A stretch of 64,000 nucleotides of DNA from Pyrinomonadales bacterium (GTDB taxonomy: Bacteria; Acidobacteriota; Blastocatellia; Pyrinomonadales; Pyrinomonadaceae). The stretch spans positions 9,391 to 73,390 of the forward strand of contig JBBQGM010000007.1 of assembly GCA_038322995.1 (NCBI GenBank), written 5' to 3'. The translations under genes and the position numbers were made by a program. This document shows, piece after piece, positions 16,097 to 52,895 of this stretch. The number at the start of each line of letters is the position of its first letter. Position 1 is the first letter of the stretch. A model generated the notes under the pieces. It was given only the letters and a program-made list of their open reading frames with translations, was not told where the DNA came from and searched no databases.

Positions 16097-16151
16097 CTGA
16101 CAGAGTTGACAACCGCAGCAAACGTAGACACGAACTAAAGGGAAAACTATC

Positions 16152-30470: not shown

Positions 30471-30491
30471 GATTTTTAGAGGTTAAAGTTC

Positions 30492-30600: not shown

Positions 30601-30922
30601 CACTTGGAATTGAGCCTACATTCTGGACTGATTAAACCTTATGCTCAAAACTCCCGTCGCATCTTAGCCCCCGATTCTGCGACCCCTCGCTTCGTGTAAG
30701 AAGGGAATTTTCTCCCATTTAGATTGCGGGAATGTGCCCGGTCAGGGTGCATCTCTTGCCGACATCACGCCCCCAAGGGAGAGTTTTTAACATCTACTGC
30801 CGCTTGAGCGAAGGAAAACGCCAGAGAACACGTGTTGATCATCAGGATTGACTATGGTATAGACCCTTGCCTCAAATCGGGAACAATTGTTTTCACCCCA
30901 AGCCTGAAAGGCGATTTCTAAT

Positions 30923-32059: not shown

Positions 32060-32062
32060 ACA

Positions 32063-33394: not shown

Positions 33395-33429
33395 CTTTTG
33401 TCCAATTCGCTCTGCACGTTGGGATCTCA

Positions 33430-33879: not shown

Positions 33880-33889
33880 ATCAATGCCT

Positions 33890-36445: not shown

Positions 36446-36783
36446 TCAGGGCTGAAGTAGAGGGAATGACTTTGAGGTGGATTCTTTGTGCCATGCCCGG
36501 GACAGGGCGTGACGACATGTCTCGCTCTCGACTTTGATGTTTAATCACGAGGAAGATACTAAGTTATTCGCAACGCACCAAGCAGGCCAATGACACCTCT
36601 TGTTTCATCAAAGTTTCTGGCCCGAGATGTATACCAAAGGAGGGCCAGAATTTAGGGTAAATGCCTTCCTGAACGGACTCCCATAGTTTCTATTCGGCGA
36701 CCCCGCAGCAAGCTGACGGGGAATTACAGATTAAATATCTTCCTGTATTCAAACTCTAAACATTCTCCTATACTGGCAGATCA

Positions 36784-38136
36784 GTGATTGCCTCGCCCGA
36801 AAAATCCTGGCCCGTACATCTGAAACCAAAGGCTGGCGAACTCTTCACTTCATGGTTAGCTCGGCTGTCCATAGCACACGGCCTTAAACCTAACAGTTTT
36901 ACTTCCATAATCTGGCCAAGCAATACTAACCTATGGCTAATACGAGACTTTGACAGGGCGAATAATAAAGAAGGGCTTGAGCTGTTAGCGGAGAAAACGT
37001 GTACGACACTTGAGAAAGTGATAGTTGCGACGCTCTCTGATTACCAAGGTCGTCTCTATGAAATATCTCCGCCAAGCGGTGTAACTTATTGGCTACTGCC
37101 ACGCGGCCAAGCTACCTCTCGGAATCACAATCTCAAATATTTCGGTTTACAATATTGCCCACGGTGCCTTTCGGAGGAGGAACCTTACTTCAGGCGGGAA
37201 TGGAGATTGGCATTTGTTACTTTCTGTGCAAAGCATAAATTATTCCTACTTGATCGCTGCACTAGATGCGGATATGCCATAAATTTTTATATGAACGTAA
37301 CAAGGGAATGGGATAGAGTTTCAGACTCCTTAACCGTTTGCTACAATTGTACCTTTGATCTTCGTCATGCTCCCATCAGTACATCTTCAAATTCGATTGC
37401 TACAGATACACTGAATTTCCAAAAACATCTTTTGACTGCCTTAGACCAAGGATGGGTAGAGGTTCCTCAGAATGCATCCGTACATTCGCTTATGTACTTC
37501 GAAGGACTACGTCACTTAGCATACGCACTTTCTGGCCGTCACAGACACATCAAGAATCTTCTAGAATTAGCCTGTAGGCATTATGGTATTAAAGAGGGTT
37601 TCCCTGGCCCTCGGCGAAGAACTACCTTTGAGAGCCTCGATGTTATTACGCGACGCATCATTGTCTTTCTAATGTCAGCACTTCTTAAAGATTGGTCCAG
37701 TGAATTTATTCAGTTTAGCAGAGCTTATAAAATTGAAAGTGACGTTTGGAGCCATCAGCAACAAGATAATATTCCTTATTGGTATTGGAGTATCATTCAT
37801 CTTAATTTAAAAAGAACTAGATACTTGCCCACTGAACAGGAAGTCACCGCTATCTTCGATTTCATAGAGAGAACTGGTCGTCCATCTACCACGAGCGAAC
37901 TACTCAAGTATTTAAATAGTGGTGTCGCGCAAACTAGGAGAAAGAGGCGAGGACTGACTCAAGCAGCTAAGTACGCCAAACATCCAGAAGCAATAAAACA
38001 AGAGGCAATACGCCTATTACTAGAAGGTAAACGGTCTGGAGAAGTGAAACAGATTTTGCCAGTTAGTAGTCACTCGTTATGGAAGTGGATGAAAGATTAT
38101 AACAAATCCGCTGACGGGGGAAGTAAGCCTACTTGA
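36784..38136 (+). CDS. tniQ: TniQ/TnsD-family target-selection protein (copy 1) with C-terminal HTH-like tail
   Basis: 450 aa, GTG start. TniQ N-terminal box WPVHLKPKAGELFTSWLARLSIAHGL. Zinc-finger pairs YCPRCL...CAKHKLFLLDRCTRCG. A C-terminal segment (EAIRLLLEGKRSGEVKQILPVSSHSLWKWMK) resembles a transposase-type HTH. Confidence 0.8.
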   Translation: MIASPEKSWPVHLKPKAGELFTSWLARLSIAHGLKPNSFTSIIWPSNTNLWLIRDFDRANNKEGLELLAEKTCTTLEKVIVATLSDYQGRLYEISPPSGVTYWLLPRGQATSRNHNLKYFGLQYCPRCLSEEEPYFRREWRLAFVTFCAKHKLFLLDRCTRCGYAINFYMNVTREWDRVSDSLTVCYNCTFDLRHAPISTSSNSIATDTLNFQKHLLTALDQGWVEVPQNASVHSLMYFEGLRHLAYALSGRHRHIKNLLELACRHYGIKEGFPGPRRRTTFESLDVITRRIIVFLMSALLKDWSSEFIQFSRAYKIESDVWSHQQQDNIPYWYWSIIHLNLKRTRYLPTEQEVTAIFDFIERTGRPSTTSELLKYLNSGVAQTRRKRRGLTQAAKYAKHPEAIKQEAIRLLLEGKRSGEVKQILPVSSHSLWKWMKDYNKSADGGSKPT

Positions 38137-38212
38137 AGTAACAAGAAGGGTGCCTTTGCATCTATTTCTGTTTAATTTTGTAATGACTAATGTGTTTTAG
38201 AGGTTTGAGTTT

Positions 38213-38992
38213 ATGCCTGTCAGGAAAATTCCAAGGAGTTATCGGAACGTAACAGGTCTCACGGCAACCAATAAGTCCAGCGAAATGACTGCATATGAAT
38301 CAGGTCTTGAACACAAGTTCCACAAACTCCTGACCTTCAACTCCAACGTCTTAAAATACGAAGAGCAGCCAGTTAAAATATACTTCATCGGCGAAGATGG
38401 AAAGACGCATCACTATACTCCTGACGTACTCATCAATTACAAAAAAGACTTGGCTCCAGCTAAACATTGGAAACCACTTCTTGCAGAAGTCAAGTGGAGA
38501 ACAGATCTATGTAAGGACTGGCAAGAACTGAAACCTAAATTTCGGGCCGCTAGGAAGCATGTAGCTGAAAGAGATTGGGATTTCACAATAGTAACCGACA
38601 AAGAAATTATAAATCCTTACTTATATAACGCTATCTTCCTCATCACATTTCGCAGGTTTCCAGTCAACGAAGATTATAGGCATTTGCTACTTGAAGCTTT
38701 AGATGAGTTGCGTGAGACAGATCCGGAGACTCTATTGCGTTCCGTGGCCGCAGATCGCGATGAAATATCTAGATTGTTACCAACCTTATGGCAACTCGTT
38801 GATAATCACGCGGTGGGCGTCAACCTAGATTCAAAGTTGACGATGCGTAGCCGAATTTGGTCGCTTCGATTCCAAGACGAGGTCGAAAGAGATGAAGGCA
38901 TTTATCAACTTATCGCCGGGCGTGGTCGTCGAATGCGATGGCAAGCGCTACGCTATCACAAGCATTTTAACTCTGGAATCCGTCCTCGCTAA
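38213..38992 (+). CDS. tnsA: TnsA endonuclease-like transposition protein
   Basis: 259 aa. Restriction-endonuclease-like E/D/K pattern (YESGLEHKF ... YTPDVLINY ... LAEVKW) as in Tn7 TnsA. Confidence 0.82.
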   Translation: MPVRKIPRSYRNVTGLTATNKSSEMTAYESGLEHKFHKLLTFNSNVLKYEEQPVKIYFIGEDGKTHHYTPDVLINYKKDLAPAKHWKPLLAEVKWRTDLCKDWQELKPKFRAARKHVAERDWDFTIVTDKEIINPYLYNAIFLITFRRFPVNEDYRHLLLEALDELRETDPETLLRSVAADRDEISRLLPTLWQLVDNHAVGVNLDSKLTMRSRIWSLRFQDEVERDEGIYQLIAGRGRRMRWQALRYHKHFNSGIRPR

Positions 38993-40774
38993 AGATGAAG
39001 AAACGGGAAACCATCGAGAGTTATATATAAAGGACATTACTCCTGTCTCGGACTTAACACTGAGCGAAGATAACAAGCAGTTAGATCTCTCTCTAATTCC
39101 CAAAGATGACTGGAATGATGCATCAGGCTGGGCCAACAGGCTTCGCCCATTAGTCTCAGCTTCGCGACGCACTACAGAAATGGTGGATGAAGTCGCGAAA
39201 GAAGCCGGTGTTGGAAGGACTACTGTTTACCGCAAACTAAAAATACTTGAAAAGTCCGGTAAAGCCTCATCCCTCATACCGCAAAAGTCCAGCGGCGGCA
39301 AAGGTAAAAGCCGTCTTTCGACTGAAGCTGAATCAATTATCCGTACCACTATCGTTGACCTTCGTTTCACCAAGGGAAAGAAGAAAGCTTCTTTCGACGA
39401 CATTTACGAAGAAATAAAAAACAAATTAAATAGATCCGAGATCGACATCCCTCACATCAATACTGTTCAGAGAAGGATCAACTCTATTCGGAAGGAATAT
39501 GAGCAGCAATCAAGCGATCAAGAAAGTGGAAAAAGAAACGTCGCATACCCCGGACGCTTTCCGGGCGCCGACTTCCCACTCGCTGTGGTGCAAATAGATC
39601 ACACTGAACTCGACATAATGCTGGTAGACGACGTTGATAGAGAACCCATTGGAAGACCTTGGATTACTTTAGCTATTGATGTCTTCAGCCGTACTGTTCC
39701 AGGCTTCTACCTTTCTCTTGATCCCCCTGGTGACATATCGGTGGGGCTTTGCATTGCTCATGCGATTCTGCTCAAAGATAAGTGGCTTGCTAAGCATAAC
39801 ATTAATATTGCTTGGCCAACTTGGGGAGTTATGAGCAAGATTCATGCTGATAATGCGGGTGAATTTCATAGCAACATGATAAAACGCGCGTGCAATGAAT
39901 ACAGCATTGATCTTGAATGGCGGCCAGTCAAAAAGCCTCGCTACGGCGCACTCATCGAGAGCTTACTTGGGACGTTCGCAGAAAAGATACACCAACTCCC
40001 AGGAACAACTTTTTCGAATCCAAAGGAGCGTGGCAAATACGACTCGGAAAAAATGCGGCACTAACTATCTCAGCGCTGGAAGAATGGTTTGCCAGGTACG
40101 TTGCCGGGGTTTATCACCAAGAAATACACAGCGCTCTACTCACCTCCCCAATAAAGCAATATGAAAAGGGTATATTTGGCACCAAGGACATACCAGGACG
40201 TGGGCTTCCCTATCAGATACATGATGAGGATCGCCTACGATTAGATTTAATGCCAGCTGAGAAACGCACCATTCAGGAGTATGGAGTAGTTATAGACTTC
40301 ATACATTATTACAGTGGCGTATTAAACAAACATATTAATGAACAAGATGAAAACTCAACCAAGAAACGCAAATTCATATTCAAGCGAGATCCACGGAATA
40401 TCAGCCGAATCTATTTTTTCGACCCCGATCTCAACGAATATTTCAAGATTCCTTACCGAGATACATCACAGCCACCTATGAGTATATGGGAGTATCGTAA
40501 GGTTCGTAGAAGGCTCGAAGCGCTAGGTAAAGAAGACATAGATGAACAGTTGATCTTTCAGACCTTCAAAGAAATGCGCGCTATTGAGGAACGCGAAGCC
40601 CGTATGACTAAAAGTAAACGGCGTGATGCTCAAAGGCGACGGCAACATCGACAAATCGAAGAGCCCAAAATGGCGGATGAGCGCCATAGGGATTTGCCAG
40701 AAAGAAATGAGTCCGATGAACTCGAAGATGTACCTGTTGTTGAACCATTTGATGAGATGGAATATCTAACGTAA
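38892..40774 (+). CDS. tnsB: TnsB-like DDE (Mu/rve-type) transposase, reading frame broken at an A6 run (40048-40053)
   Basis: ORF 38892-40064 carries an HTH region and DDE residues (VVQIDHTELD, IHADNAGEF) and ends ...KERGKYDSEKMRH-stop. ORF 39917-40774, in the -1 frame, continues ...NAALTISALEEWFARYVAGVYHQEIHSAL. A -1 shift within GGAAAAAAT joins them into one protein of about 627 aa. Confidence 0.8.
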
Positions 40775-40843
40775 GCATACATAAGAGTGAAGATGCTATG
40801 AGCCCCTTAATTTCGATCTAACCTGCAAAGCTAAGGACATCGG

Positions 40844-41785
40844 ATGAGCCAGAAGGATACTCAGGGCATCGCAAGTCCAACACATCTTAATGTAAATGAG
40901 AGAACGTGGCTGGAATTAAGTGATGATGAGCGCATTTTTAAGTTACATGGCGAACGCTGGATTAGATACGATAAGGCTAAAGAGATCATTGACAAGCTAA
41001 ACAAGCTAATCACGTATCCTAAGAAACGAAGAATGCCGAACTTATTAATCGTTGGGGATACCAACAATGGTAAGACGATGATCGTCAATCGGTTTAAGGA
41101 ACAACACCCACCTGACGACAATATAGATGGCGATGCGAAGATCATCCCTGTAATAATTGTACAAGCTCCGCCCACAGCGGATGAGGGTCGTTTCTACAAT
41201 CACATTCTCACCCAACTGAATGCACCATTTAAAGAGAACGACAGGCCCGGAAAGAAGTACATACAGGTAGTAACTATATGTCAACGCGTTGGTCTTCGAG
41301 TTCTCATCATTGACGAGATACACGACATTATTGCGGGCAGCAGATCTAGTCAGCGTGTTTTCCGCAACGCGATCAAACAGCTCGGTAACGATCTCCAAAT
41401 TCCTATCGTCGGTGTTGGCATAGACGCAGCCTATAACGCCATACAGTCGGATGACCAGTTAGCGAATCGTTTCGAACCTGCCATATTACCGAGATGGAAG
41501 ATAAGCGATAACCTGCCTCCTGCAAAAGATCCATATTTGAAACTTTTAACCAGTTTCGAGCGCATGCTTCCTCTTCGCAATCCATCATATCTGGTCCACA
41601 AAACAATGGCTTTGAAATTGATGAGCATGTGTGAAGGACTGATTGGCGAGTTATCAACTGTGCTCACCAGAGCGGCTGAACAAGCTATCAGAAATAAAAG
41701 GGAAAAAATCGACGTGGTGACTTTGAACGAAATAGGCTGGATAGCTCCCTCGGACCGGAGCAGAAGGACGCAAGTAATAGGCTGA
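40844..41785 (+). CDS. tnsC: TnsC/TniB-like AAA+ ATPase
   Basis: 313 aa. Walker A GDTNNGKT, Walker B VLIIDEIHD, TniB-like length. Confidence 0.82.
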   Translation: MSQKDTQGIASPTHLNVNERTWLELSDDERIFKLHGERWIRYDKAKEIIDKLNKLITYPKKRRMPNLLIVGDTNNGKTMIVNRFKEQHPPDDNIDGDAKIIPVIIVQAPPTADEGRFYNHILTQLNAPFKENDRPGKKYIQVVTICQRVGLRVLIIDEIHDIIAGSRSSQRVFRNAIKQLGNDLQIPIVGVGIDAAYNAIQSDDQLANRFEPAILPRWKISDNLPPAKDPYLKLLTSFERMLPLRNPSYLVHKTMALKLMSMCEGLIGELSTVLTRAAEQAIRNKREKIDVVTLNEIGWIAPSDRSRRTQVIG

Positions 41786-41821
41786 ATGAAAAACCGCAGA
41801 GCAACTTCAGATATGTAGTCG

Positions 41822-41866
41822 GTACATTTCAATCCTAAGCACGACGAGCTTTTGTCCCCATGGCTG
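41822..41866 (+). pseudogene. possible relic of a third tniQ 5' end immediately downstream of tnsC
   Basis: Frame translation VHFNPKHDELLSPWL parallels the TniQ N-terminal box of both intact copies (VHLKPKAGELFTSWL; VHLKPKDDELISSWL). An in-frame TAG precedes it, and similarity is lost after about 15 codons. Confidence 0.4.
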
Positions 41867-41953
41867 CCCGCTTGGTTATCGCAAAATATGGAGGTAATAA
41901 TTTTTAAATATAGGCTTCCGCCGAAAAGTTTTGTGCTGTATCCCCAGTATGCT

Positions 41954-42262
41954 CTAGTTTTGGGCAGAAGACTTTCTTTTAACGCCTTCTTTCTTTGCCC
42001 TGGAGGGTAGATTCTCCGGCAAATTCAAATTGTCATCGACGAGAACATCAATCCATACCCCAGCCATACGAGCATACTCCAAGAGTGTCAGCAGTGATGG
42101 CTCGCGCGTGCCCCGCTCGAAAGCAGACACATCTGACTGCGTTAATTCATCAGCCAGTCCAAGATGCCTTAACAATGAATTTTGAGAATCGTTGAAGGTC
42201 CGCCGAATAGTTAATAATTTTTCAGCCAAACGCTGCGGCTTTCGCCTTGCAAACGTGCCCAT
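41954..42262 (-). CDS. XRE-family helix-turn-helix transcriptional regulator
   Basis: HTH: SQNSLLRHLGLADELTQSDVSAFERGTREPSLLTLLEYARMAG. Start placed at the second ATG (42262) because AGGAGG lies 9 nt upstream. The track ORF extends to 42286. Confidence 0.75.
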   Translation of the reverse strand: MGTFARRKPQRLAEKLLTIRRTFNDSQNSLLRHLGLADELTQSDVSAFERGTREPSLLTLLEYARMAGVWIDVLVDDNLNLPENLPSRAKKEGVKRKSSAQN

Positions 42263-42317
42263 CAGGATATACCTCCTGATGGGCACAACATTTGTGTTCC
42301 GAGTTTCCTCTTGCTTT

Positions 42318-42335
42318 TAAGTGCAATTGCACTTA
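42318..42335. promoter_or_regulatory. 18-bp perfect palindrome, candidate operator of the XRE regulator
   Basis: TAAGTGCAATTGCACTTA lies about 55 bp upstream of the XRE start, in the divergent intergenic region. Confidence 0.4.
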
Positions 42336-42522
42336 GTATTTCATGGTACTTGTTTTTCGCCGGCGGGAGGTTATCTCTGTTGTCCCATACGGCGCCCATC
42401 ATCTTCGATGTTGAGCTGCCTTACTCATTTGCTAAGAGCCACCGAAAATTCCCGGCGAAGGATACCAAAAAACTCTAAAGATCGTCACTCACTAAGATAT
42501 CGCGCAAATCAATGAATAGATT

Positions 42523-42876
42523 ATGCGATTGGATGAACACATTGTGCGAGAAGAAATAATACCGCACCCGCGGGGGCGGAAGCTGAAACTATTCTATTAT
42601 GAACAGGTCAATTCACGCTCCTACTTACGGATCACCAAACTTGGTCTCGTTATCGTTTTGGTCTTCACCGTCTTACCGGTTATTGCACTCCTCTCTTTAT
42701 TTCTCTTAAATCAATCAACTCCGATGCCGAATGTGGATGTAACGATCAAGCCGATGCCGACGGCTAACGATTCCATTTACTACTATCCGCCAACCGACAC
42801 CACCGCCCGCTCCGAAAGTACTGAGGCAGCCCAAAGCAGCATAATCCGTCCCGCCAGCACCTCCATCGCCTATTAG
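42523..42876 (+). CDS. hypothetical single-pass membrane protein
   Basis: 117 aa with one TM helix (LGLVIVLVFTVLPVIALLSLFLL). Divergent from the XRE gene. Confidence 0.4.
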   Translation: MRLDEHIVREEIIPHPRGRKLKLFYYEQVNSRSYLRITKLGLVIVLVFTVLPVIALLSLFLLNQSTPMPNVDVTIKPMPTANDSIYYYPPTDTTARSESTEAAQSSIIRPASTSIAY

Positions 42877-42884
42877 GAACAGTA

Positions 42885-43124
42885 ATGAGCCGTAAGCACA
42901 AACGAGATGGCGCACATCGCGGATCTACGCCACAGGCCAAAAGATGGCCGGTTAAGATGAAACTCTCTCAGGCTGCGAAATTTCTTGGGATCAGTTCTTC
43001 GAATCTCAGCAACCTCGTGAGTAGTGGGAAAATATCGGTTGAAGATGATCCGCTTGATAGACGTGTGAAGCTCGTAAAGCGCGCTGATCTTGAAGAGATA
43101 TTGCACCGGCGCACTGGTGTTTAA
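42885..43124 (+). CDS. small HTH DNA-binding protein (excisionase/MerR-like HTH_17)
   Basis: 79 aa. KLSQAAKFLGISSSNLSNLVSSGKI fits a helix-turn-helix. Confidence 0.5.
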   Translation: MSRKHKRDGAHRGSTPQAKRWPVKMKLSQAAKFLGISSSNLSNLVSSGKISVEDDPLDRRVKLVKRADLEEILHRRTGV

Positions 43125-43357
43125 GTTAAAGATGTCTTCCCCTGAGAAATAACATTTCACATTTTCCGGAAAAAGCTCAAGAACACAGCGAATTATGGCC
43201 GGTTCACTTAAAACCCAAAGACGATGAACTCATATCTTCGTGGCTAGTTCGTTTAGCCCGCGCCCACGGGCTGAAATTACACACCTTTTGCTCTCTTACT
43301 TGGCCTGAAAAACAAATTTGGAATAGGGACATTGACAAGTCCGCTGACTCTCAACTA

Positions 43358-44341
43358 GTGGAGACATTATCCGCCAAAACAGGAACGCCTCTTGAACGGG
43401 TGAGAGCGACAACACTTGCGGCTTATGAAAACGTACTTTATGAGAAGCATAACCATTTCGGCCCCTCCTCATGGATTATGCCAATTGGCGTTTATCACCG
43501 GACTCACAAACAGTTCGGATTACAGTATTGTCCGCGCTGTTTTACTGAGGACGAAGATCCGTATTACCGCTGCAAATGGCGCTTGGCCTTAATAGTAGTA
43601 TGTGAGAAACATCATGTAGTGCTTCACGACCGCTGCCCCAAGTGTGGAGAACCCGTCAACTTCCATCGCGACGAGTTGGGTAATCATCGCAAGTTTGTTG
43701 CCGTCTCACTAACGCTCTGTTATTCCTGTCATTTTGATCTGCGAGCAGTTGTAAGCAAGCCAGGCTTCTCTGCAACGTTCGAAGAAGCTCAATTTACCTC
43801 CACACTACTACGGACGATAGATGCCGGTTTTATTCAGGTAAGCGAGGGCATAGTAACGCACTCCCATTTGTTTTTTGCAGGGCTTCGCCAATTGATGAAG
43901 ATCCTAGCAATGCGGGATAAGCGAATAGTTAGCATGTGTCAGGCTATTAGCGAAACATATGGAGTTGAGGTATACACGCCTTCGGTTTCGAGAACAATCG
44001 ACGTTCAAGAAATCGGGGTCGAAGGTCGTAGGCAATTGCTGGGGCTTGCTTGTTGTTTGCTTCAGGAGTGGCCTCACCGCTTTATTGAATTCTCTCGAAA
44101 ATTCAAAGTCTGGAGTTCATTGTGGTTAAGACATGTAGATTCTCCCACGAACCGAAGGACAACTGTGGCACCATTTTGGTTCTGGAGTACCGTTCACGAC
44201 CATTTATATCGCGCTCGATACTGTCCTTCTTATGAAGAAACAAAAGCTGCAATAGGATATCTCAAACGCAAAGGAAGGCCAGTGAACAAATCAGTGCTTG
44301 CCCGCTTGCTAGGAGTTACAGTGATACGCAGAGAATTGTAG
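43358..44341 (+). CDS. tniQ: TniQ/TnsD-family protein (copy 2); conserved N-terminal box lies upstream of the first canonical start
   Basis: Zinc-finger pairs YCPRCF...CEKHHVVLHDRCPKCG, collinear with copy 1. The same frame is open back to 43131 and encodes ...HFPEKAQEHSELWPVHLKPKDDELISSWLVRLARAHGLKLHTF, the TniQ box. There is no ATG/GTG/TTG in that stretch, only CTG 43142 and ATT 43154. Confidence 0.75.
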   Translation: METLSAKTGTPLERVRATTLAAYENVLYEKHNHFGPSSWIMPIGVYHRTHKQFGLQYCPRCFTEDEDPYYRCKWRLALIVVCEKHHVVLHDRCPKCGEPVNFHRDELGNHRKFVAVSLTLCYSCHFDLRAVVSKPGFSATFEEAQFTSTLLRTIDAGFIQVSEGIVTHSHLFFAGLRQLMKILAMRDKRIVSMCQAISETYGVEVYTPSVSRTIDVQEIGVEGRRQLLGLACCLLQEWPHRFIEFSRKFKVWSSLWLRHVDSPTNRRTTVAPFWFWSTVHDHLYRARYCPSYEETKAAIGYLKRKGRPVNKSVLARLLGVTVIRREL

Positions 44342-44368
44342 TTTGAAGCTTTGCTCTAATGCCGGTCT

Positions 44369-45136
44369 TCAAATTTGTTGAAGTAGCCATGCATTTGTTT
44401 CCTTAATGGCCTTGTTAATTTTCTTCTGCTGATCTGGAGTTGTATCAGCGCGTTGCGCTTCTTCTCTCATGATAGCTTTAAGATCTTTAACTGCCCACTC
44501 AATAGCAGTGCTCCTATCATCACATATTTTACTGTGGAACTTTGACGGGCCGTAGATGCCTCCGCGTGTGGTTGGAAGCTTGAACTCGATGCCGTGGCGC
44601 CATTTCTCGTCCTGTACATCCCGGACTATTTCAATCGTGGCCTGAATCTCAAGATCATCTGAGTACGGAACAGCAATCTTTTCCACACCTCTGATATATG
44701 AGCCTGCATTGCTGAGCTGAGGATGCTGTTGAGATAAAGACCGAAGTTGATCACAAGTGAATGTGACTGTCTTTCTCCTTCCTCTTTGGCCCTTCGGATT
44801 GAATAAACGAACATTCACATCATCTTTTACTATTTTGACTATTTCGCCAAAGCCTGCGGGAGATGCCACGTATCGACACAATTGCATGGGCACAGGAAAT
44901 CCTCCCTCTGTGTGAATCTTATACCCGGTTTCTCTTTCAAAATGTTCGGCTCCGAACCAATATAAGGTTCGAAGCTCTTTGCCCTTGACTCGCTGACCGA
45001 TCTCTTCCGCCCGTACCCCGACCTCGCTCAGATGCGAGATTTTAAAAGAGGTGCCTTCGAACTCGAACGTGTCGTTAATCTCTAGAGTGCGCTCGATAGA
45101 ACAATTACGTCTTCGTATAGGATTCTTCTGTGCCAT
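44369..45136 (-). CDS. hypothetical protein
   Basis: 255-aa ORF with no recognisable motif. The preceding small ORF stops 3 nt upstream. Confidence 0.5.
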   Translation of the reverse strand: MAQKNPIRRRNCSIERTLEINDTFEFEGTSFKISHLSEVGVRAEEIGQRVKGKELRTLYWFGAEHFERETGYKIHTEGGFPVPMQLCRYVASPAGFGEIVKIVKDDVNVRLFNPKGQRGRRKTVTFTCDQLRSLSQQHPQLSNAGSYIRGVEKIAVPYSDDLEIQATIEIVRDVQDEKWRHGIEFKLPTTRGGIYGPSKFHSKICDDRSTAIEWAVKDLKAIMREEAQRADTTPDQQKKINKAIKETNAWLLQQI

Positions 45137-45139
45137 ACA

Positions 45140-45361
45140 TCATTTACCTGTCAAAACGTTTCCAGCTTTAAATTCGGAGAGCACGGAGCGGTCAGATTTA
45201 ATCACCGGGCCATATTTTGAATACTGCCGAAATCGGCTGCCGAGCTCGCGCAATAAATATATTGCAGTCAACAGGATAATCAAGTATCCTGAGAGCCCGG
45301 GCGCGTACTTTTTGAGCCTCAGCTTTATTTTCGATTTAACTATCAGCCCGTAACCCGTCAT
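45140..45361 (-). CDS. small hypothetical protein with one hydrophobic segment
   Basis: 73-aa ORF (GLSGYLIILLTAIYLL), tightly coupled to 44369-45136. Confidence 0.3.
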   Translation of the reverse strand: MTGYGLIVKSKIKLRLKKYAPGLSGYLIILLTAIYLLRELGSRFRQYSKYGPVIKSDRSVLSEFKAGNVLTGK

Positions 45362-45616
45362 TAGTTTGGCATTTTGTGTTTGGCACTTTCTATTCCGCTT
45401 GTTAAAGGCAGATGCAACGATTTCGTGTTTGTCATTTACTGTTTAAAACAGCGGGAGAAAGGACGGGAAGCATATAGAAGAAAGAATCGGCGGTATTGAT
45501 ATCATCGGGCGTCTCATCCTGTAAAATTGGATTTGGATGATGGGCTGCGCTCTTTGAAGCAATACTTCCTATACATTTAGGACTGCCTATATTGATGAAA
45601 GAGACGGGAGATCTCT

Positions 45617-46663
45617 GTGCCCATCCAGGTCTATGATTTCTTTTCGGGGTGTGGCGGTACAAGTGCTGGTTTAAGGGCTTCCGGAATGCAGATAGCCCTC
45701 GGCCTTGATATTGACCCTGACGCACAAGGTACATTTCAAGCTAATTTCCCGGAAGCAGCGTTCATCCATGGAAACATTAGAGAAGTCCAAGCCGAGGCCA
45801 TCGCCCCTTATATAAACCGTGAAGCACATGATCGGCTGCTCTTCTCCTGCTGCGCTCCATGCCAATCATTCTCAATACTAAACAGAAATCGGAATGGCAA
45901 AGATGCCCGGGCTTTGTTGCTCTATGAATTTGCACGTTTTGTTGAGCCCTACCTACCTGAGTTTATTTTTTTAGAAAATGTTCCGGGCGCACAAAATGTC
46001 TCAGGAGAACCGGGACCGTTTACTGACTTCGAGCAGCTACTGAGACTCTTAAATTATAATGTAGCTTATGGAATTATAGAATCGCAGCGTTATGGGGTTC
46101 CTCAACGACGTAAAAGGTTCGTTTTGATAGCTAGCCTGTTAGGCCCCATAGACCTACCTGAAGTTACACATGGGCCGGGAACAACAAATCCAACTTATCC
46201 TACTGTCTGGGAAAGTATCGGTCATTTACCACCTATCGCCGCAGGTGAAACTCATCCGATAATACCGAATCATAGAGCTGCCGGCTTGTCCGAGATTAAT
46301 CTCAGAAGAATAATTGCTACGCCAGAAGGGGGCGGGCGATTAAATTGGCCAGAAGAACTCGTTTTGGATTGTCATGGCGGAGAATACGACGGCCACACAG
46401 ATGTATATGGTCGAATGCGAAAGCATGAGCCAGCCAGTGGTCTGACAACGAGATGTACCAGTCTATCGAACGGGCGTTTCGGACACCCGGAACAGCATAG
46501 GGCTATCAGCGCTCGTGAGGGAGCTTGCTTGCAGACTTTCTCGCAAGATTTTATATTTTCCGGCGGTATTAACTCGATGGCACGTCAGATAGGTAATGCA
46601 GTTCCTGTATTGGTAGCACAGATATTTGGTCAACACTTCATTGCTCACTCTGACCTCTACTAA
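45617..46663 (+). CDS. dcm: DNA (cytosine-5)-methyltransferase
   Basis: All C5-MTase motifs are present in order: I FFSGCGG, IV APCQSFS, VI ENVPG, VIII QRRKRFVLIA, X GNAVPV. GTG start. Confidence 0.92.
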   Translation: MPIQVYDFFSGCGGTSAGLRASGMQIALGLDIDPDAQGTFQANFPEAAFIHGNIREVQAEAIAPYINREAHDRLLFSCCAPCQSFSILNRNRNGKDARALLLYEFARFVEPYLPEFIFLENVPGAQNVSGEPGPFTDFEQLLRLLNYNVAYGIIESQRYGVPQRRKRFVLIASLLGPIDLPEVTHGPGTTNPTYPTVWESIGHLPPIAAGETHPIIPNHRAAGLSEINLRRIIATPEGGGRLNWPEELVLDCHGGEYDGHTDVYGRMRKHEPASGLTTRCTSLSNGRFGHPEQHRAISAREGACLQTFSQDFIFSGGINSMARQIGNAVPVLVAQIFGQHFIAHSDLY

Positions 46664-46680
46664 AAGCAAGGATTATCTCA

Positions 46681-49656
46681 ATGGCCAAATTTAGGGCTCG
46701 TGCTCGAACCGTTGACATGCTCGGTCGTCAACAGATCGCCGGGATACCTACGGCCATTAGCGAATTATTCAAGAACGCACATGATGCTTATGCGGAAAAT
46801 GTAGAAGTAGACTTCTTCCGCTCTGAACACCTTTTTGTCTTGCGAGATAACGGCATAGGTATGACAGAGGAAGAGTTTGTAAGCCGCTGGCTCGCTATTG
46901 GGACCGAGAGCAAATTGGGTGCAGGGATAGGATTATCGCCACCACCGAAACCTTCGGACATTGCTGAACGTCCTATCATGGGAGAAAAGGGTATTGGGCG
47001 GCTTGCAATAGCAGCCATTGGCCCGCAGGTTTTAATTCTCACACGAGCCACCCGCGATGACAAACAGCATGACATTGTCATGTCTTTCATTCACTGGGGG
47101 ATATTTGAGAGTCCCGGGATAAATCTGGATGAAATAGATATACCCGTTGAAGTTTATAAGGAGGGCGAGTTGCCGAGTCGCGATGACGTTCTAGCGATGG
47201 TCGATTTATTCCGCGAGAATATTGACAAGCTAGGCGCATCAATCCAACCTTTATTGGCAGAAAGAATTAATACGGAACTGAAGAGATTCAATGTTGACCC
47301 CCGCACATTGGATGGCTATTTGAGCAAAATAGGTAAGTCGACCCTCACAGGAAAGGGAAAGGGTACCCACTTCCTGATTTTCCCCACGGATGAATCTCTA
47401 ATACCGGATATAGAAGGCGATAGCGACCCTACTGCCCCAGCCCCACCTATAATCAAAACATTGATCGGATTCTCCAATACAATGACGAGCGAGCAACCGC
47501 CTGTTATTGATACGAGTTTTCGTGATCATAATACCCCTGAAGCCTATGTCGATCTAATCACACCTGGAAGTTTTTTCACACCAGAAGAGTTTAAAACGGC
47601 TGACCATCATTTTTCCGGTGAGTTTGATGAGTACGGCCAGTTCTCTGGAAAAGTAACCATTTATAGAGAAGAGCCTGTGCAACATACAATTGCTTGGCCA
47701 GGAGCGAAAGGAGAGAAAACCGAGTGCGGTCGGTTCAAACTCAACTTGGCATATGTGCAGGGCGAACGAGTTGAAAGCCTTTTACCTCAGCAGGATTACG
47801 TCAAGATTATTAGGAAGCTTAATAAGATCGGCGGATTGTATATCTACAAAAATGGAATTCGTGTTCTTCCCTATGGTAGCAGTGATTATGATTTTCTTGA
47901 TTTGGAACAAAGAAGAAGTAAGAAAGCATCCTACTATTATTTCTCATATAGACGAATGTTTGGTTATGTGGAAATAAGCGGAAGTACCAACCCCCAATTA
48001 ATTGAGAAGGCAGGACGCGAGGGCTTTATAGAGAACAAAGCATATAGACAATTCAAGTCGATTTTAAAACACTTCTTCTTACAGATGGCCATCGATTTCT
48101 TCCGTGAAAGCGGAGAACATTCGGATGCATATTATGAAGGCCGAAACGAGCTAACGAGGGCAGAAGCAATTCGCCGAGCACGCGAAAGAAAAGTCAAAGA
48201 AGAGAGAAGAAGTTTTGCCAATACTCTGAATGAATTTTTCTTGCAAGTCGAAGAAGAAGTGCCACAGAAGCAGGCGTCGCAACTGCTTAACACGGTCAGT
48301 AATCAGTTACAAACGATTTCAAATACTAGTGACCAGATACAGGCATCCTCTGCACTTTTGGAGCTTGATGCCAGCTCTCGCAAAAGGGTTGAAGTTTTGC
48401 GAGAGCGTTACAAAATAACAAAGCCGCGCGGATTAGGTCTTACCCCAAAACTTCGCCGAGATTGGGAACTTTGGGCAAAAGAGTCTGGACGGCTCGAAGT
48501 CGACATTTTTCAGCCCACTCAACAAAGAGTAGACTTACTTATAACTGAAGCGGCACATCAACAACGCACGTCCGTCAACCCACAGAAGCGTATCGAGCGC
48601 GCGCTCAAAGAAAGAATTGCCGAAGCTCGTTCAACGGTCAACCATGAAATCAGGGAAACAAAACAAATTATTGAGGATGTTCGAACCCATACACTACAGC
48701 TTATAAATAATAGTGCGGCTCATTTGGAAAGTGTAATAAATGAAGCCCAGAGTGATCTTAATCAGTTGCAAGGCTCTGCTAAGGAAGAGGCATCAATCTT
48801 AGGAGAATATTACAGGTTAGAATCCGAGTTAAGCGAAGCTGCCGAGAGAGAACGACAAGCACTTGAGAATATACGCAAGCAGTTACAAGAAAACATCGGC
48901 GCATCGGTTAGCACCGACGAAGTAATTGAAGCCTTGGAAGAAGAAAATCTAGCCCTTCATGAGAGTGCGAACGCTGATATAGAACTGATACAACTTGGGA
49001 TGGCGGTAGCGGTCATAAACCATGAATTCGAAAGCACGGTTCGTTCGATTCGCAGTAATTTACTGCGACTCAAAGGATGGGCTGATACTAATAAGGAGTT
49101 AAGAGATCTTTACAGACATGTGAGGGCCGACTTCGATCATTTAGATGCCTATTTGGAATTGTTTACTCCTCTTGAGAAGCGTCTATTCCGCAAGAAAGCT
49201 ACAATACGCGGTTCTGATATTGCCAAGTACTTGCGCGATCTATTTGATGAGCGGTTACGCAGAGAGAAGGTCGAAATCCAATCCACCAATAGCTTCTCTC
49301 GGATGTCGTTCTCCGGATATCCTTCAGCCTTCTATCCAGCTTTCGTCAACCTGGTAGATAACGCGATTTTTTGGCTAAAAGATCGGCGCCTCCCGAGAAT
49401 TATAAAGCTAGATCTGATAGGCGGTAGTACGTTTGTAATTTCGGATAATGGCCCGGGCATCCCTGTAAGAGACCGAGAGATGATTTTCGAGCGCGGTTTT
49501 TCGCGCAAGCCGGGGGGCAGAGGGATGGGACTGAAAATTTCACGCGATGTGCTATCCCGAGAAGACTGGGAACTGACCCTAGCCGAATCAAAGCCCGGTG
49601 AAGGAGCCACCTTCCTGATGAAACCCAAGCCCCTGGAGAGAAAGGGGAAAACTTAA
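46681..49656 (+). CDS. dual-ATPase protein: N-terminal GHKL (HATPase_c_3 / MORC-like) module, long coiled coil, C-terminal histidine-kinase transmitter (DHp + HATPase_c)
   Basis: 991 aa. N-terminal Bergerat fold boxes ELFKNAHDA, LRDNGIGM, GEKGIGRLA. Residues ~480-760 are heptad-rich. H-box-like AVAVINHEFESTVRSI, then N-box LVDNAIFW, G1 SDNGPGI, G2 GGRGMGLKISR. Starts 18 nt after dcm. Confidence 0.8.
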   Translation: MAKFRARARTVDMLGRQQIAGIPTAISELFKNAHDAYAENVEVDFFRSEHLFVLRDNGIGMTEEEFVSRWLAIGTESKLGAGIGLSPPPKPSDIAERPIMGEKGIGRLAIAAIGPQVLILTRATRDDKQHDIVMSFIHWGIFESPGINLDEIDIPVEVYKEGELPSRDDVLAMVDLFRENIDKLGASIQPLLAERINTELKRFNVDPRTLDGYLSKIGKSTLTGKGKGTHFLIFPTDESLIPDIEGDSDPTAPAPPIIKTLIGFSNTMTSEQPPVIDTSFRDHNTPEAYVDLITPGSFFTPEEFKTADHHFSGEFDEYGQFSGKVTIYREEPVQHTIAWPGAKGEKTECGRFKLNLAYVQGERVESLLPQQDYVKIIRKLNKIGGLYIYKNGIRVLPYGSSDYDFLDLEQRRSKKASYYYFSYRRMFGYVEISGSTNPQLIEKAGREGFIENKAYRQFKSILKHFFLQMAIDFFRESGEHSDAYYEGRNELTRAEAIRRARERKVKEERRSFANTLNEFFLQVEEEVPQKQASQLLNTVSNQLQTISNTSDQIQASSALLELDASSRKRVEVLRERYKITKPRGLGLTPKLRRDWELWAKESGRLEVDIFQPTQQRVDLLITEAAHQQRTSVNPQKRIERALKERIAEARSTVNHEIRETKQIIEDVRTHTLQLINNSAAHLESVINEAQSDLNQLQGSAKEEASILGEYYRLESELSEAAERERQALENIRKQLQENIGASVSTDEVIEALEEENLALHESANADIELIQLGMAVAVINHEFESTVRSIRSNLLRLKGWADTNKELRDLYRHVRADFDHLDAYLELFTPLEKRLFRKKATIRGSDIAKYLRDLFDERLRREKVEIQSTNSFSRMSFSGYPSAFYPAFVNLVDNAIFWLKDRRLPRIIKLDLIGGSTFVISDNGPGIPVRDREMIFERGFSRKPGGRGMGLKISRDVLSREDWELTLAESKPGEGATFLMKPKPLERKGKT

Positions 49657-49659
49657 CTT

Positions 49660-51453
49660 ATGACCTCACCCTCAGGAACCGACTTCAGACAGCATTCGGA
49701 GAATGTTGCTCGCAGATTCCTTCAAACAGTTGTAGTCGTTGATGATCGCGCTTACTTTGATTGGCCGGAATCAGTCTCCGTGCCTACGACTCCTGTAAAA
49801 TCTCCCGCACGCCCACAGTTTGTCGGAGAAACGACGACAATTATCGAGCCTGAAGAAGAGTCCGACATTACGGATGAAGCAGCTACGGATGAGACTTTAG
49901 ACGAAATAAAGGAACCGATAGTCGAGCAAGCGAGGACTGACGAGGAGACTTCTGAAGATCGAGCCCACGTGTTGGATGCTAAGTACCTGATCGAAAGTTT
50001 CGCCGAACGAGGTATGGCATGTGCGGTTCTTCGACCTAAGAAGTTTGAGGTTGATCAATTAGACAAAAAGGTCTACCCGGTCGCGGAGCGTTCTGACATT
50101 GTGATGTTGGATTGGGTACTACATCAGGATACCGAAGGCAAGAAAGTTACTGAACTCATTGCCGAAATGACGAAAAGGGCATTGGAGCAGCATCGCTTGC
50201 GACTAATAGTCGTATATACGGGCGAACTAAAAATCTTCGACATTGTTGATACCATTTTGGCGGTCTTGAAGAAGGCTGGTGTAAATGATGTTTTGAAGGA
50301 AGATGATTTCACATTGGTGATTGGGTCGGTAAGGATCGTTGTATATGTCAAGAACAACGTTGGCGGGGTGGGTCTAAGCGATGAACTAAGAGGAAGGTTA
50401 GTGCCGGCTGATCAATTACCTGATAGATTGATCAGCGAATTTACGAAAATGACGGCAGGACTTGTATCCAATGTTGCGCTTGATTCGCTTGCTGCGCTAC
50501 GTTCGAACACGCACCGTATACTATCAAAATTCAATGCCGATATAGATGCGCCATTCCTGGCACATCGAGCAATGTTGCCTCATCCGGAAGATGCCAGCGA
50601 TCTACTTGTTCATCTCGTTAGCGGTGAATTAACTGCTGTGCTTGAGGGAAATAAAGTCGGGGTAGCCGCGGATGAGAGTGAGGGGACAGATGTAATCAAG
50701 GCTTGGATAGAGATGAACGAAGCAAGCGGATATGAGTTCGCAAAGCGATTTGCGGTTAAGGAGTCTATTGATGTTTTAGTTCAATTGAATACGTTGCTTC
50801 GCAAGGGTGTCGCTAACGATACATTACTAGGGAAATTCAAGACTTTCAAAAACAACCCTCATCAACGTGAACTGACAGCGCAATTGTGTTCCTCTTCGAA
50901 ATCCGCTTCCGATCTGGACCATGAGTTTGCAGCATTAACAATACTGAAGTCCGACTACCGTTCGGAGTCGAACCTACCTGCCCTTGTTCCCGGAACCTTG
51001 CTAAAGGAGATATCGTCATCGGAAGAGATAGAATCTTCTTTCAAATACTGGGTATGCATACAACCTGTATGCGACTGCGTCAGAATCAAGTCCACAAGAT
51101 CATTTCCCCTTCTCCAATTAGATTTGGTTAATGACAATGGTAAGTTTGATCTTATATTGCCGGATAAAGGAAAGAAATTCGTGAAGGCTCGCGTTATATA
51201 TCGTCCGTATAAATCTCGTTTGGAAGATTTTGATCCGTCCACTGATGGCTCAGAAATGGTACGCGCAGAAGCTCAAAGCGGCGAAATTTATTTTACGGCT
51301 AAGGATGGAACTCGCTATCAATGGCTTGCAGACTTGAAGTTTGAGCCGGCGCAGAGAATAGTCAATAAATATGCATCTGAACTTGCGCGCGTCGGCCTTA
51401 ATGAATCCGAATGGCTGCGTCGGTCGGCCAAAGGCAAAGGGGAGGAAGAATAG
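49660..51453 (+). CDS. atypical receiver (REC-like) domain protein with an acidic insert and an unassigned ~350-aa C-terminal region
   Basis: 597 aa. VVVVDDR (acidic pair), IVMLDWVL (candidate phospho-acceptor Asp) and LIVVYTG (conserved Thr position) are arranged as in CheY-like receivers. The ~70-aa Glu/Asp/Thr-rich insert is unusual. No motif is recognised in the C-terminal part. Starts 4 nt after the kinase stop. Confidence 0.65.
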   Translation: MTSPSGTDFRQHSENVARRFLQTVVVVDDRAYFDWPESVSVPTTPVKSPARPQFVGETTTIIEPEEESDITDEAATDETLDEIKEPIVEQARTDEETSEDRAHVLDAKYLIESFAERGMACAVLRPKKFEVDQLDKKVYPVAERSDIVMLDWVLHQDTEGKKVTELIAEMTKRALEQHRLRLIVVYTGELKIFDIVDTILAVLKKAGVNDVLKEDDFTLVIGSVRIVVYVKNNVGGVGLSDELRGRLVPADQLPDRLISEFTKMTAGLVSNVALDSLAALRSNTHRILSKFNADIDAPFLAHRAMLPHPEDASDLLVHLVSGELTAVLEGNKVGVAADESEGTDVIKAWIEMNEASGYEFAKRFAVKESIDVLVQLNTLLRKGVANDTLLGKFKTFKNNPHQRELTAQLCSSSKSASDLDHEFAALTILKSDYRSESNLPALVPGTLLKEISSSEEIESSFKYWVCIQPVCDCVRIKSTRSFPLLQLDLVNDNGKFDLILPDKGKKFVKARVIYRPYKSRLEDFDPSTDGSEMVRAEAQSGEIYFTAKDGTRYQWLADLKFEPAQRIVNKYASELARVGLNESEWLRRSAKGKGEEE

Positions 51454-51456
51454 CCC

Positions 51457-51885
51457 GTGCCAGATATTATGACGCCTGCTCAACGTAGTAGAGCAATGTC
51501 AATGGTGCGGAGTAAGGATACCGGAATAGAAAAGTTTGTGCGTTCGGAGTTGCATCGCAAAGGATTTCGATTCAGGAAGAATGTTGCATCACTTCCAGGC
51601 CGCCCGGATATTGTGCTGCCTAAGTATCGCACTATTGTATTCGTACATGGCTGCTTCTGGCATGGTCATGAAAACTGCAAAGCCTCAAAGCTACCGGAGA
51701 CTAGGCGCGATTTTTGGGAACGAAAGATTTTCGGCAATATAGAGCGTGATGCAAAGCATGTTAAAGCATTGAAGGACGATGGATGGAAAGTTCTGACTAT
51801 TTGGGAGTGTACCCTAAAGTACAAAAATATTAGTGATAAAGTAACCGCCGTCGAAGCGCTTACGGAGAACATAAAAGTCAACTGA
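51457..51885 (+). CDS. vsr: very short patch repair (T:G mismatch) endonuclease
   Basis: 142 aa. TPAQRSRAMSMVRSKDTGIEKFVR, GRPDIVLPKYRTIVFVHGCFWHGHENC, FWERKI..N..RD are hallmark Vsr blocks. The start may be ATG 51469. Confidence 0.92.
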   Translation: MPDIMTPAQRSRAMSMVRSKDTGIEKFVRSELHRKGFRFRKNVASLPGRPDIVLPKYRTIVFVHGCFWHGHENCKASKLPETRRDFWERKIFGNIERDAKHVKALKDDGWKVLTIWECTLKYKNISDKVTAVEALTENIKVN

Positions 51886-51930
51886 TTATTTAGTACTGGA
51901 ATTTTAAAATAAGCCGGAACACATCCGCAT

Positions 51931-52629
51931 ATGGACCCACGCAAGCTATTTGTTGATGAAAGGTTAACGGGAATTTGTGTTTATTGTGGTGCCGCACCGA
52001 ATACGCGCGACCATGTCCCATCCCGGGTACTTTTGGATGAGCCTTTTCCGGCAAACTTGCCGGTGGTTGATGCATGTCGAAGTTGCAATGATAACTTTTC
52101 GCAAGACGAAGAGTATGTGGCCTGCCTTATTGAATGTGTTATTTGTGGGACAACAGAGCCGAATAGCGTTAAGAGGGATAAAATCAAGAGGATATTGAAT
52201 GACCGCTCTTTGATAGCAGCGAGAATACGAGAGAGTTGCAACGAAGATGCCACCGGCAATCTGTCGTGGCAGGCTGATATAGTACGAGTTCGGAATGTTA
52301 TTCTGAAGCTAGCTCGCGGACATCTAGCCTTCGATTTGAATGTTTGTCACTTCGAAGCTCCAAATGTTCTTGAATTCGTGCCTCTTGTGACTATGTCGCA
52401 GGAGGAGATCAATTCATTTGAACAGTCACAGGAAGAACAAAGCGCGCTTTTTCCTGAAATCGGCAGTCGTGCTTTCATCTCGATGTGGAAGTCTACAGGT
52501 GCCGAATGGCATGATTGGCGCGAAGTGCAGACCGGAAGGTATCGTTATCGTGTCGAGCAATCTTTAGATGGTGACAAAGTGCAATTCGTAATAAGTGAAT
52601 ATCTTGCTTGTAAACTGATCTGGATCTAG
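51931..52629 (+). CDS. HNH-type (beta-beta-alpha-Me) nuclease-domain protein
   Basis: 232 aa. CVYCG-N7-DHVPSRV-N17-CRSCNDNF has the CxxC...DH...CxxCN arrangement of zinc-stabilised HNH nucleases. The C-terminal two thirds are unassigned. Confidence 0.6.
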   Translation: MDPRKLFVDERLTGICVYCGAAPNTRDHVPSRVLLDEPFPANLPVVDACRSCNDNFSQDEEYVACLIECVICGTTEPNSVKRDKIKRILNDRSLIAARIRESCNEDATGNLSWQADIVRVRNVILKLARGHLAFDLNVCHFEAPNVLEFVPLVTMSQEEINSFEQSQEEQSALFPEIGSRAFISMWKSTGAEWHDWREVQTGRYRYRVEQSLDGDKVQFVISEYLACKLIWI

Positions 52630-52828
52630 ATCCCACCTGTGTAACCAGAGACACCAACTGTTTTCCTTAATCTCAGTGTTAGCTTTTTTCTACGCCTACT
52701 GAGAATTCCATAAATCATACTTGCTTGAACTGCGATTAGAGCAAGCTATTTTGCCTGAAGAGGCGATCTCTTTGTTCATACTACCTATTAATCCAATTTG
52801 CCTGTAATGACGTTTGTTAGAGGGGAAG

Positions 52829-52895
52829 ATTTCCAAGGTCTATTGTGTTATTTCAAACGACTTTGGTGTATTTCAGAGGACTTTGGTTTTTAGTA
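52829..52895 (-). repeat. transposon end B: terminal IR plus three abutting putative TnsB-binding repeats
   Basis: Read on the minus strand: ACCAAAGTCCTCTGAAAT (52887-52870), ACCAAAGTCGTTTGAAAT (52867-52850), ACAATAGACCTTGGAAAT (52846-52829). The 20-21 bp spacing is tighter than at end A. Confidence 0.75.

Follow-up and report, generated by a model that had tools for sequence, protein, structure and literature searches.

The window analysed here, a stretch of 64,000 nucleotides from contig JBBQGM010000007.1 of a Pyrinomonadales bacterium, carries at positions 45617-52629 five open reading frames (ORFs) on the plus strand, which in the ORF listing are separated by gaps of 17, 3, 3 and 45 nt. 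These coordinates and gaps reproduce the gene calls and the tight same-strand packing of an initial annotation, which had interpreted the five genes as an undescribed, methylation-linked two-component defence system with an HNH nuclease as restriction partner; that interpretation is partly right on the logic, and wrong on the novelty and on the fifth gene. The first four genes (45617-51885) are a dcm/GHKL-HEF_HK/Response_reg_2/vsr cassette, another member of a module described in 2021, and the fifth (51931-52629) is an independent neighbour, not a component of the module. The five genes are as follows:

45617..46663, + strand: C5 cytosine DNA methyltransferase dcm, 348 aa, core
46681..49656, + strand: GHKL/histidine-kinase fusion, HEF_HK "group 1", 991 aa, core
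49660..51453, + strand: Response_reg_2 protein with receiver and family-specific output domain, 597 aa, core
51457..51885, + strand: Vsr very-short-patch-repair endonuclease, 142 aa, frequent dispensable companion
51931..52629, + strand: HNH-like zinc-finger protein, 232 aa, neighbour in a variable slot, non-core

The module comes from the work of Bellieny-Rabelo, Pretorius & Moleleki (Genome Biol Evol 2021; PMC8011034), which is the source of the families PF19191 (HEF_HK) and PF19192 (Response_reg_2) and which used comparative genomics with no experiments. They reported the histidine kinase (HK) and response regulator (RR) genes to be linked at 91.6% in 644 regions from 628 strains, the proteins being soluble and the architecture HATPase_c_3 + HEF_HK + HATPase_c being dominant (174 of 222 sequences). 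C5-methylase genes were "frequently located upstream", Vsr genes had as their "most prevalent organisation" a place next to the RR-like gene on its downstream side, nuclease domains including HNH_2 occurred nearby, and restriction-modification (R-M) genes were over-represented. The authors proposed that the family derives from the paraMORC ATPases described by Iyer et al. 2008, noted that the genes were up-regulated during infection and competition stress, and speculated on a regulatory reading. The window has PF19191 in the group 1 architecture, an adjacent PF19192 gene, a C5-methylase upstream and Vsr after the RR gene, and it shares with the published family the soluble character of the proteins and the HNH-type genes that are sometimes nearby; the pair and all these neighbours were thus already on record, and the system cannot be called undescribed. 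It differs from the published description in that the copy in the window is carried by a Tn7-like transposon whose host has a high GC content, and in that its sub-lineage has a private, divergent partner of 255 aa.

Methylase and Vsr are both full-length and score above curated cutoffs, as in a canonical dcm-vsr pair. The dcm product matches PF00145 (DNA_methylase) over profile positions 2-320 of 324 (E=3e-50) and TIGR00675 at 139 bits, above cutoff, and its translation shows the motifs FSGCGG, PCQ, ENV and GNAVP; the Vsr product matches TIGR00632 at 143 bits (cutoff 97.85) and PF03852 with E=4e-32.

The 991-aa kinase carries HATPase_c_3 (residues 24-126), HEF_HK (771-835) and HATPase_c (883-983) in that order, each above its Pfam cutoff. 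Profile search in this way bore out the proposed GHKL/histidine-kinase fusion, as it did the receiver partner discussed below. The domains of the kinase lie at:

46750..47058, + strand: N-terminal MutL/Hsp90/MORC-type Bergerat ATPase domain, residues 24-126 (PF13589, E=1e-13)
48991..49185, + strand: HEF_HK dimerisation/phosphotransfer (DHp) domain with the H-box ..VINH781EFES.. (PF19191, E=2e-25)
49327..49629, + strand: C-terminal catalytic ATP-binding (CA) domain (PF02518, E=1.5e-18)

The HEF_HK match reaches 89.5 bits against a cutoff of 24.1. In a conservation map of 73 homologues the Bergerat site is invariant (E28, N32, D35, D56xGxG60 and G101EKGIGRL), and conservation also extends to the H-box N-H781-E-F and to the motifs of the CA domain. 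Residues ~733-988 match the PDB histidine kinases MprB, PhoQ, ZraS and CpxA, and the profile of the N-terminal ATPase family gives weak matches to the ATP sites of HtpG, MutL and PMS2. A second strongly conserved block at residues ~300-460 (DH308-309, GGLYIYxNGIRVLPYG, EKAGREGF) has no match in Pfam or the PDB, the S5 family included. Conservation is low from ~480 to 760 (mean identity 31%); this stretch has many E, K, Q, R and L residues and is probably a coiled-coil linker. PF19191 is without T/N at H+4, the residue linked to phosphatase activity, and the window kinase has S785 there; such a site is compatible with a one-way trigger. By inspection, with no transmembrane predictor run, no hydrophobic segment is evident in the translation.

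The N-terminal half of the kinase places it close to several ATPases of R-M and defence systems. ParaMORC proteins are recognised by intact N-terminal GHKL motifs followed by an S5-fold transducer domain; the kinase has the MutL/MORC-type GHKL motifs intact and invariant, followed by the conserved 300-460 block. The likeness to the paraMORCs of Iyer, Abhiman & Aravind 2008 extends to operons with cytosine methylases and Vsr-superfamily endonucleases that are highly mobile between genomes, whereas paraMORCs pair with superfamily-II (SF-II) helicases or carry fused nucleases, neither of which is present at the window. No histidine-kinase core or receiver partner appears in the 2008 paper ("receiver" and "two-component" occur 0 times each), which the initial annotation had also cited. 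In NCBIfam the kinase matches NF050001 (BbrUII/HgiDII Type II enzymes; E=3e-17) with residues 9-128 at profile positions 8-121 of 659, a match that is limited to the ATPase head. The BbrUII/HgiDII enzymes have an N-terminal GHKL ATPase of the same subtype and accompany C5-methylases, and an ATPase of this subtype also forms the N-terminus of the GHKL-Shedu protein VcSduA/paraMORC3, in which a GHKL ATPase can gate a defence nuclease. Both have a nuclease domain of their own; in contrast, the C-terminal half of the window protein is a kinase core in which no nuclease is detectable. PADLOC v2 returned for the kinase only a generic match of the N-terminal ATPase (REase_II, some Type II restriction enzymes), and none of its models matches the receiver protein or the HNH-like protein.

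The 597-aa partner matches Response_reg_2 (PF19192) at residues 20-233 with E=2.5e-33 and 116 bits against a cutoff of 27; homologues span its full length, and its AlphaFold2 model has a predicted local distance difference test score (pLDDT) of 84.6. It divides into two parts:

49717..50358, + strand: receiver (REC-like) domain, residues 20-233, from invariant residues and a modelled (beta-alpha)5 pattern
50377..51450, + strand: output domain, residues 240-597, from the model, with no fold match

D28, D29, D151, T187 and K231 do not vary among 70 homologues, and the receiver domain therefore appears to be catalytically competent; the H-box histidine and the receiver aspartate that the initial annotation had singled out are indeed conserved among homologues as H781 and D151. 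In the AlphaFold2 model an acidic, disordered insert (residues ~37-105) splits the domain. The public gene call for the receiver is 557 aa long and starts 40 codons downstream of the ORF start (49660-49779), which would delete the conserved FLQTVVVVDD acidic pocket; as this region is conserved across the 70 homologues, the 597-aa start is supported.

Modelled on its own, the output domain is predicted with high confidence (pLDDT 91.4, predicted template-modelling score (pTM) 0.84); in the model a helical bundle at residues 241-428 is followed by a beta-barrel-like domain at 446-559 and a pair of C-terminal helices. Neither the full-length nor the domain-only model found a PDB or BFVD fold match at E<=1e-3, the domain has no Pfam match at E<=10, and its profile matched no PDB sequence. 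A DH/PH fold was rejected as noise, with a root-mean-square deviation above 20 Å, and a MazF-like fold was set aside with matches too weak to use. Seven residues do not vary (D296, C466, C471, D472, R475, E584 and R587) and H302 reaches at least 90% conservation, a pattern that points to a catalytic or metal site. Searched exhaustively, the family comprises 1455 clusters at 50% identity, and in the best 150 of these 1455 relatives the output domain always stands behind a REC domain, with no domain shuffling.

A census of relatives shows which genes belong together. One genome per GTDB species was scanned, giving 218 loci with a relative of the receiver protein, and the best 80 were analysed by searching their six-frame ORFs with the window proteins. 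These 80 loci come from Acidobacteriota (the closest, at 50-52% identity, being Blastocatellia/Pyrinomonadaceae), Chloroflexota, Bacteroidota, Gammaproteobacteria, Binatia, Planctomycetota, Methanosarcinales and one Asgard archaeon. The kinase lies immediately upstream of the receiver gene in 78 of the 80, and dcm lies directly upstream of the kinase on the same strand in 71 of the 75 loci with room for it (a 72nd has a frameshifted dcm), a linkage of dcm, HK and RR that is far beyond chance. By comparison vsr is present in 52/80 loci (65%), with none within 10 kb in 28/80, and it stands upstream of dcm (23 loci), between dcm and HK (3) or, on either strand, downstream of RR (25). The separation of dcm and vsr by the kinase/receiver pair, on which the initial annotation had laid weight, is accurate for the window and only one of several arrangements in the 80 loci. 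The 232-aa HNH-like gene recurs in a single locus (L079). Because HK-RR and dcm are linked, vsr is variable and the HNH-like gene occurs once in 80, the core is dcm-HK-RR(-vsr). Among clustered ORFs within 3 kb of the triad in the 80 loci there was no further conserved partner, an extra nuclease included. A classical Type II R-M system has a recognisable restriction endonuclease gene conserved beside the methylase; here there is no conserved neighbour of this kind, the HNH-like gene being limited to that one locus and the 255-aa ORF to one sub-lineage.

 The nearest kinase/receiver relatives (L001, L003 and L004; kinase 45-76% and receiver 51-59% identical by segment) have a dcm that is just 32-33% identical to that of the window, with vsr between dcm and kinase, and more distant kinase/receiver relatives have a dcm that is 52-55% identical. 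Since dcm identity runs counter to HK/RR relatedness, the dcm(+vsr) cassette has been swapped independently of HK-RR, much like the exchange of specificity modules in R-M systems. The module thus departs from the canonical dcm-vsr pair in two ways, the two genes being split by HK-RR or arranged around it in an order that varies, and the cassette being exchanged independently of the pair. Near-obligate linkage to a methylase together with swapping is the pattern expected if methylation protects against the partner's activity.

In other genomes the module keeps company with known defence genes, a context that agrees with the initial annotation. Recurrent neighbours are Type I R-M systems (about 9 loci), Gabija/Septu/PARIS-like ATPases (6 loci) and HNH Type II enzymes (3 loci), and STAND NTPases are also found. 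In three gammaproteobacterial loci (L022, L027 and L030), over about 500-16200 of each, vsr-dcm-HK-RR is flanked by drmMI and drmA of DISARM, and the module is there embedded within another defence system. It is carried aboard Tn7-like elements at the window, in L090 and in L093.

Two further defence systems were considered as possible homes for the module. Detocs (Rousset et al. 2023) is reported to combine a kinase, DtcA, having a TPR sensor, with a buffer receiver, DtcB, and a receiver-PNP effector, DtcC, and to have no methylase. The module is like Detocs in the proposed logic of a cytoplasmic kinase that would hand a phosphoryl group to a receiver fused to an effector domain and in its location in defence islands; it differs in having a methylase and a GHKL sensor module and in having no stand-alone buffer receiver. 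Membership in Detocs was rejected on the lack of a stand-alone receiver gene, of a PNP domain in residues 240-597 of the RR protein and of a PADLOC match to that protein. The methylation-associated defence system (MADS) was likewise rejected, as neither GHKL nor Vsr, cytosine or receiver components occur in the paper that describes it.

The fifth gene of the window was examined in the same manner. Its 232-aa product matches HNH_5 below threshold (E=0.008, 16.5 bits against a Pfam cutoff of 27.5), 6 of 27 family members match at E<=0.1, and there is a faint profile match of residues 12-55 to PDB 4h9d, an HNH endonuclease (E=0.88). The invariant residues of the family are C16, C19, H28, C49, C52 and N53 (CxxC...DH...CxxCN). 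In searches of the same kind the family gave 1823 matches compared with 133 for the receiver protein, and in six sampled contexts it mostly stood alone, in defence islands or in islands flanked by integrases, one next to Shedu SduA_C, one next to vsr-dcm-N6_Mtase and three without an R-M link. The sister Tn7-like element L090, which occupies a homologous attachment site (identity to the window: dcm 89%, kinase 79%, receiver 67%, Vsr 77%), stops right after vsr and has no HNH-like gene; L091 has an NB-ARC/TPR STAND gene after vsr and no HNH-like gene, L093 has an HNH_2 gene there, and L092 shows no HNH gene on a contig that ends ~270 bp past vsr and is uninformative. As its occupant differs among L090, L091 and L093, the slot after vsr is variable. 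In L079 a member of the HNH-like family directly follows the RR gene. Two unrelated HNH-superfamily families fill the post-vsr slot in a minority of cases, and the HNH-like gene may thus be an optional accessory.

On the other side of the cassette lies a gene that had not been counted with it:

44369..45136, - strand: 255-aa ORF, sub-lineage-specific companion, divergent from dcm, from recurring adjacency

It has no match in any family library, its family numbers 13 members among 5.8 billion proteins, and many acidic and basic residues of that family are invariant. In all five contexts examined, inside and outside Tn7, it is adjacent to and divergent from dcm-HK-RR-vsr, and it is absent from the 80 census loci. 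Its product may serve as a cognate restriction enzyme, as a controller protein or in an accessory role, and it may be an extra component of the module in its sub-lineage.

The reading that we consider most likely, and favour with moderate confidence, is that dcm-HK-RR(-vsr) is a methylation-gated, R-M-like defence or addiction module which signals by His-Asp phosphotransfer. The C5-methylase would mark host DNA; the N-terminal MutL/MORC-type ATPase and the 300-460 block would engage DNA or a methylase-DNA complex and report a non-self or unmethylated state; the signal would run along the probable coiled coil of residues ~480-760 to the DHp/CA module, which would then autophosphorylate His781; and the phosphoryl group would move from His781 to Asp151 of the receiver protein, switching on the C-terminal output domain as the effector. 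Vsr, where present, would repair just the T:G damage that arises from deamination of 5-methylcytosine. What the analysis establishes is the gene content, the linkage, the conservation of every catalytic signature, the independent exchange of the methylase cassette, the neighbourhoods in defence islands and the mobile carrier; from these we infer DNA sensing, phosphotransfer, effector activity and a defence or addiction phenotype. The logic of sensing, phosphorelay and effector in the initial annotation is a reasonable hypothesis.

Several observations weigh against a methylation-gated module. An adjacent dcm is missing in 4 of the 75 loci, one of them (L002) being the locus with the frameshifted gene; the HK-RR pair is rare on plasmids (2 matches) and absent from phages (0) in plasmid and phage collections; and the searched literature yielded no experimental study and no system name for the module. 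Structure, profile and Pfam searches found no nuclease or other known effector fold in the conserved core, the best hint for the barrel being only weakly MazF/CcdB-like or PH-like (E ~0.06, template-modelling score 0.5-0.56 on the target). Nor does any HK or RR segment clearly co-vary with the methylase type, Spearman coefficients ranging from 0.25 to 0.64 with the highest for the CA domain; with no co-varying segment, either the methylase would supply the sequence recognition, as in Type III systems, or the sensor would not be sequence-specific.

Four other explanations deserve to be weighed against the phosphorelay-coupled, methylation-gated module. That all five genes form one system, with the HNH protein as the restriction or effector nuclease, would fit their common strand, the 45-nt gap and the absence of promoter- and terminator-like sites from the stretch that separates vsr from the HNH gene, in a scan that was uninformative, promoter-like sites being fewer than in shuffled sequence. 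It would also fit L079, where the same family follows RR, and L093 and ~3 other loci, where HNH_2 genes of the other family follow the module. The gene is, however, confined to one census locus and absent from L090 and L091, its family is more than 10 times the size of the RR family in the same kind of search and is usually solitary, and the HNH assignment itself is below threshold; we therefore hold the five-gene system to be very unlikely. About equally improbable is that the 255-aa protein is the cognate Type II restriction endonuclease of dcm, in a conventional R-M(+vsr) system into which HK-RR was inserted as a controller or second layer. In its favour, the family is tiny (13 members), fast-evolving and without detectable homologues, divergent from dcm in every one of its five contexts inside and outside Tn7 and rich in invariant charged residues of both signs; yet the ORF is absent from all 80 other loci, the largest dcm group is without a conserved restriction-enzyme candidate, so that this explanation cannot account for the whole family, and no nuclease motif or fold was shown for the protein.

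Better placed, and still unlikely in our view, is a regulatory two-component system in which the kinase senses a cytoplasmic cue, such as the nucleoside triphosphate level or the state of DNA, and the receiver controls the expression or activity of the linked methylase or of nearby R-M genes without being an immune effector itself. That no enzymatic fold was found in the output domain, half of which consists of a helical bundle with a possible role in DNA or protein binding, speaks for regulation, as do the up-regulation of the genes in infection and competition stress and the over-representation of R-M genes nearby (PMC8011034). Against it, not one helix-turn-helix (HTH) or other DNA-binding family is matched even at E<=10, the invariant Cys, Asp, Arg and Glu and near-invariant His of the output domain are more typical of a catalytic or metal site, a methylase is the sole invariant partner and there is no conserved restriction enzyme on which the pair could act, and the module travels as a self-contained cassette on transposons. 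Also very unlikely in our view is a dedicated module for 5-methylcytosine maintenance and repair, in which the MutL-like ATPase recruits or stimulates Vsr and so limits the C-to-T mutation caused by a mobile methylase. A functional interaction between MutL and Vsr is established for E. coli MutL, and Iyer et al. 2008 refer to it; the profile of the N-terminal ATPase gives a weak match to MutL/PMS2, and vsr accompanies 65% of the loci; but vsr is missing within 10 kb in the remaining 28 and varies in position and strand, and a repair role leaves a complete kinase core and a receiver with a large conserved output domain unexplained.

For the methylation-gated module a bolder formulation can be given, which we put forward only tentatively and regard as possible rather than probable: that dcm-HK-RR is a self-contained R-M-like immune or addiction system, in which the MORC/MutL-type ATPase reads methylation and a phosphorelay leads to a receiver with an effector of new fold. 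If true, this would be the first R-M-type system with a phosphorelay between sensing and killing, and it would contain a new effector enzyme. A defence system of this kind would connect MORC-type ATPases of bacteria with phosphorelay signalling and with the epigenetic marking of self DNA, and would bear on how eukaryotic MORCs read methylated chromatin. The module is widespread, with members in archaea and in many bacterial phyla, and it is closely tied to DNA methylation and carried on mobile elements; the family is known computationally, and this is a good candidate for wet-lab work and not the discovery of a new kind. The window offers a clean, transposon-delimited example which, together with the natural comparison set of sister elements with and without the HNH gene, defines a minimal construct.

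The carrier of the module is the following element:

30348..52895, no strand assigned: Tn7-like transposon with the dcm/HK/RR/vsr module and the HNH-like gene as its last cargo, from repeats, tns genes and a GC step

It encodes TniQ, TnsA, a split TnsB, TniB/TnsC and a second TniQ, with the two tniQ genes at 36784-38136 and 43358-44341. Inverted terminal repeats of the ACCAAAGTC type occupy 30348-30439 and 52846-52895 in several copies, the element is flanked by an exact 5-bp duplication of its target site, CCTGC, at 30343-30347 and 52896-52900, and the GC content is ~45% in the transposon block compared with ~63% in the surrounding host DNA. TnsA, TnsB, TnsC(TniB) and TniQ together with multi-copy terminal repeats and the 5-bp duplication make the element a member of the Tn7-like group, and the placing of the genes as its distal cargo in the initial annotation was confirmed by the tns genes, the terminal repeats and the duplication.

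The tnsB gene (38892-40774) is split into two overlapping ORFs. As the intact 648-aa TnsB of L090 matches it with residues 1-389 in one frame and 389-644 in another, the window tnsB is frameshifted near position 40050, possible explanations being a pseudogene, an error in sequencing and programmed frameshifting. The insertion point of the element is the 3' end of a tRNA-U5-methyltransferase/TRAM-like gene (52853-54106, - strand), of which approximately the last 14 codons come from the transposon end; as the sister element L090 occupies a homologous site, this suggests a dedicated attachment site. Elsewhere on the transposon are two ORFs of 378 and 443 aa (30923-33394, + strand) without a Pfam or PADLOC match, and a second, conventional two-component pair (33430-36445, - strand) consisting of an 851-aa GAF-GAF-HATPase_c kinase and a short receiver of 149 aa. 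A gene at 42885-43124 on the + strand, placed between tnsC and the second tniQ, encodes a 79-aa HTH_17/AlpA-like DNA-binding protein, which may be an excisionase-type regulator of the element.

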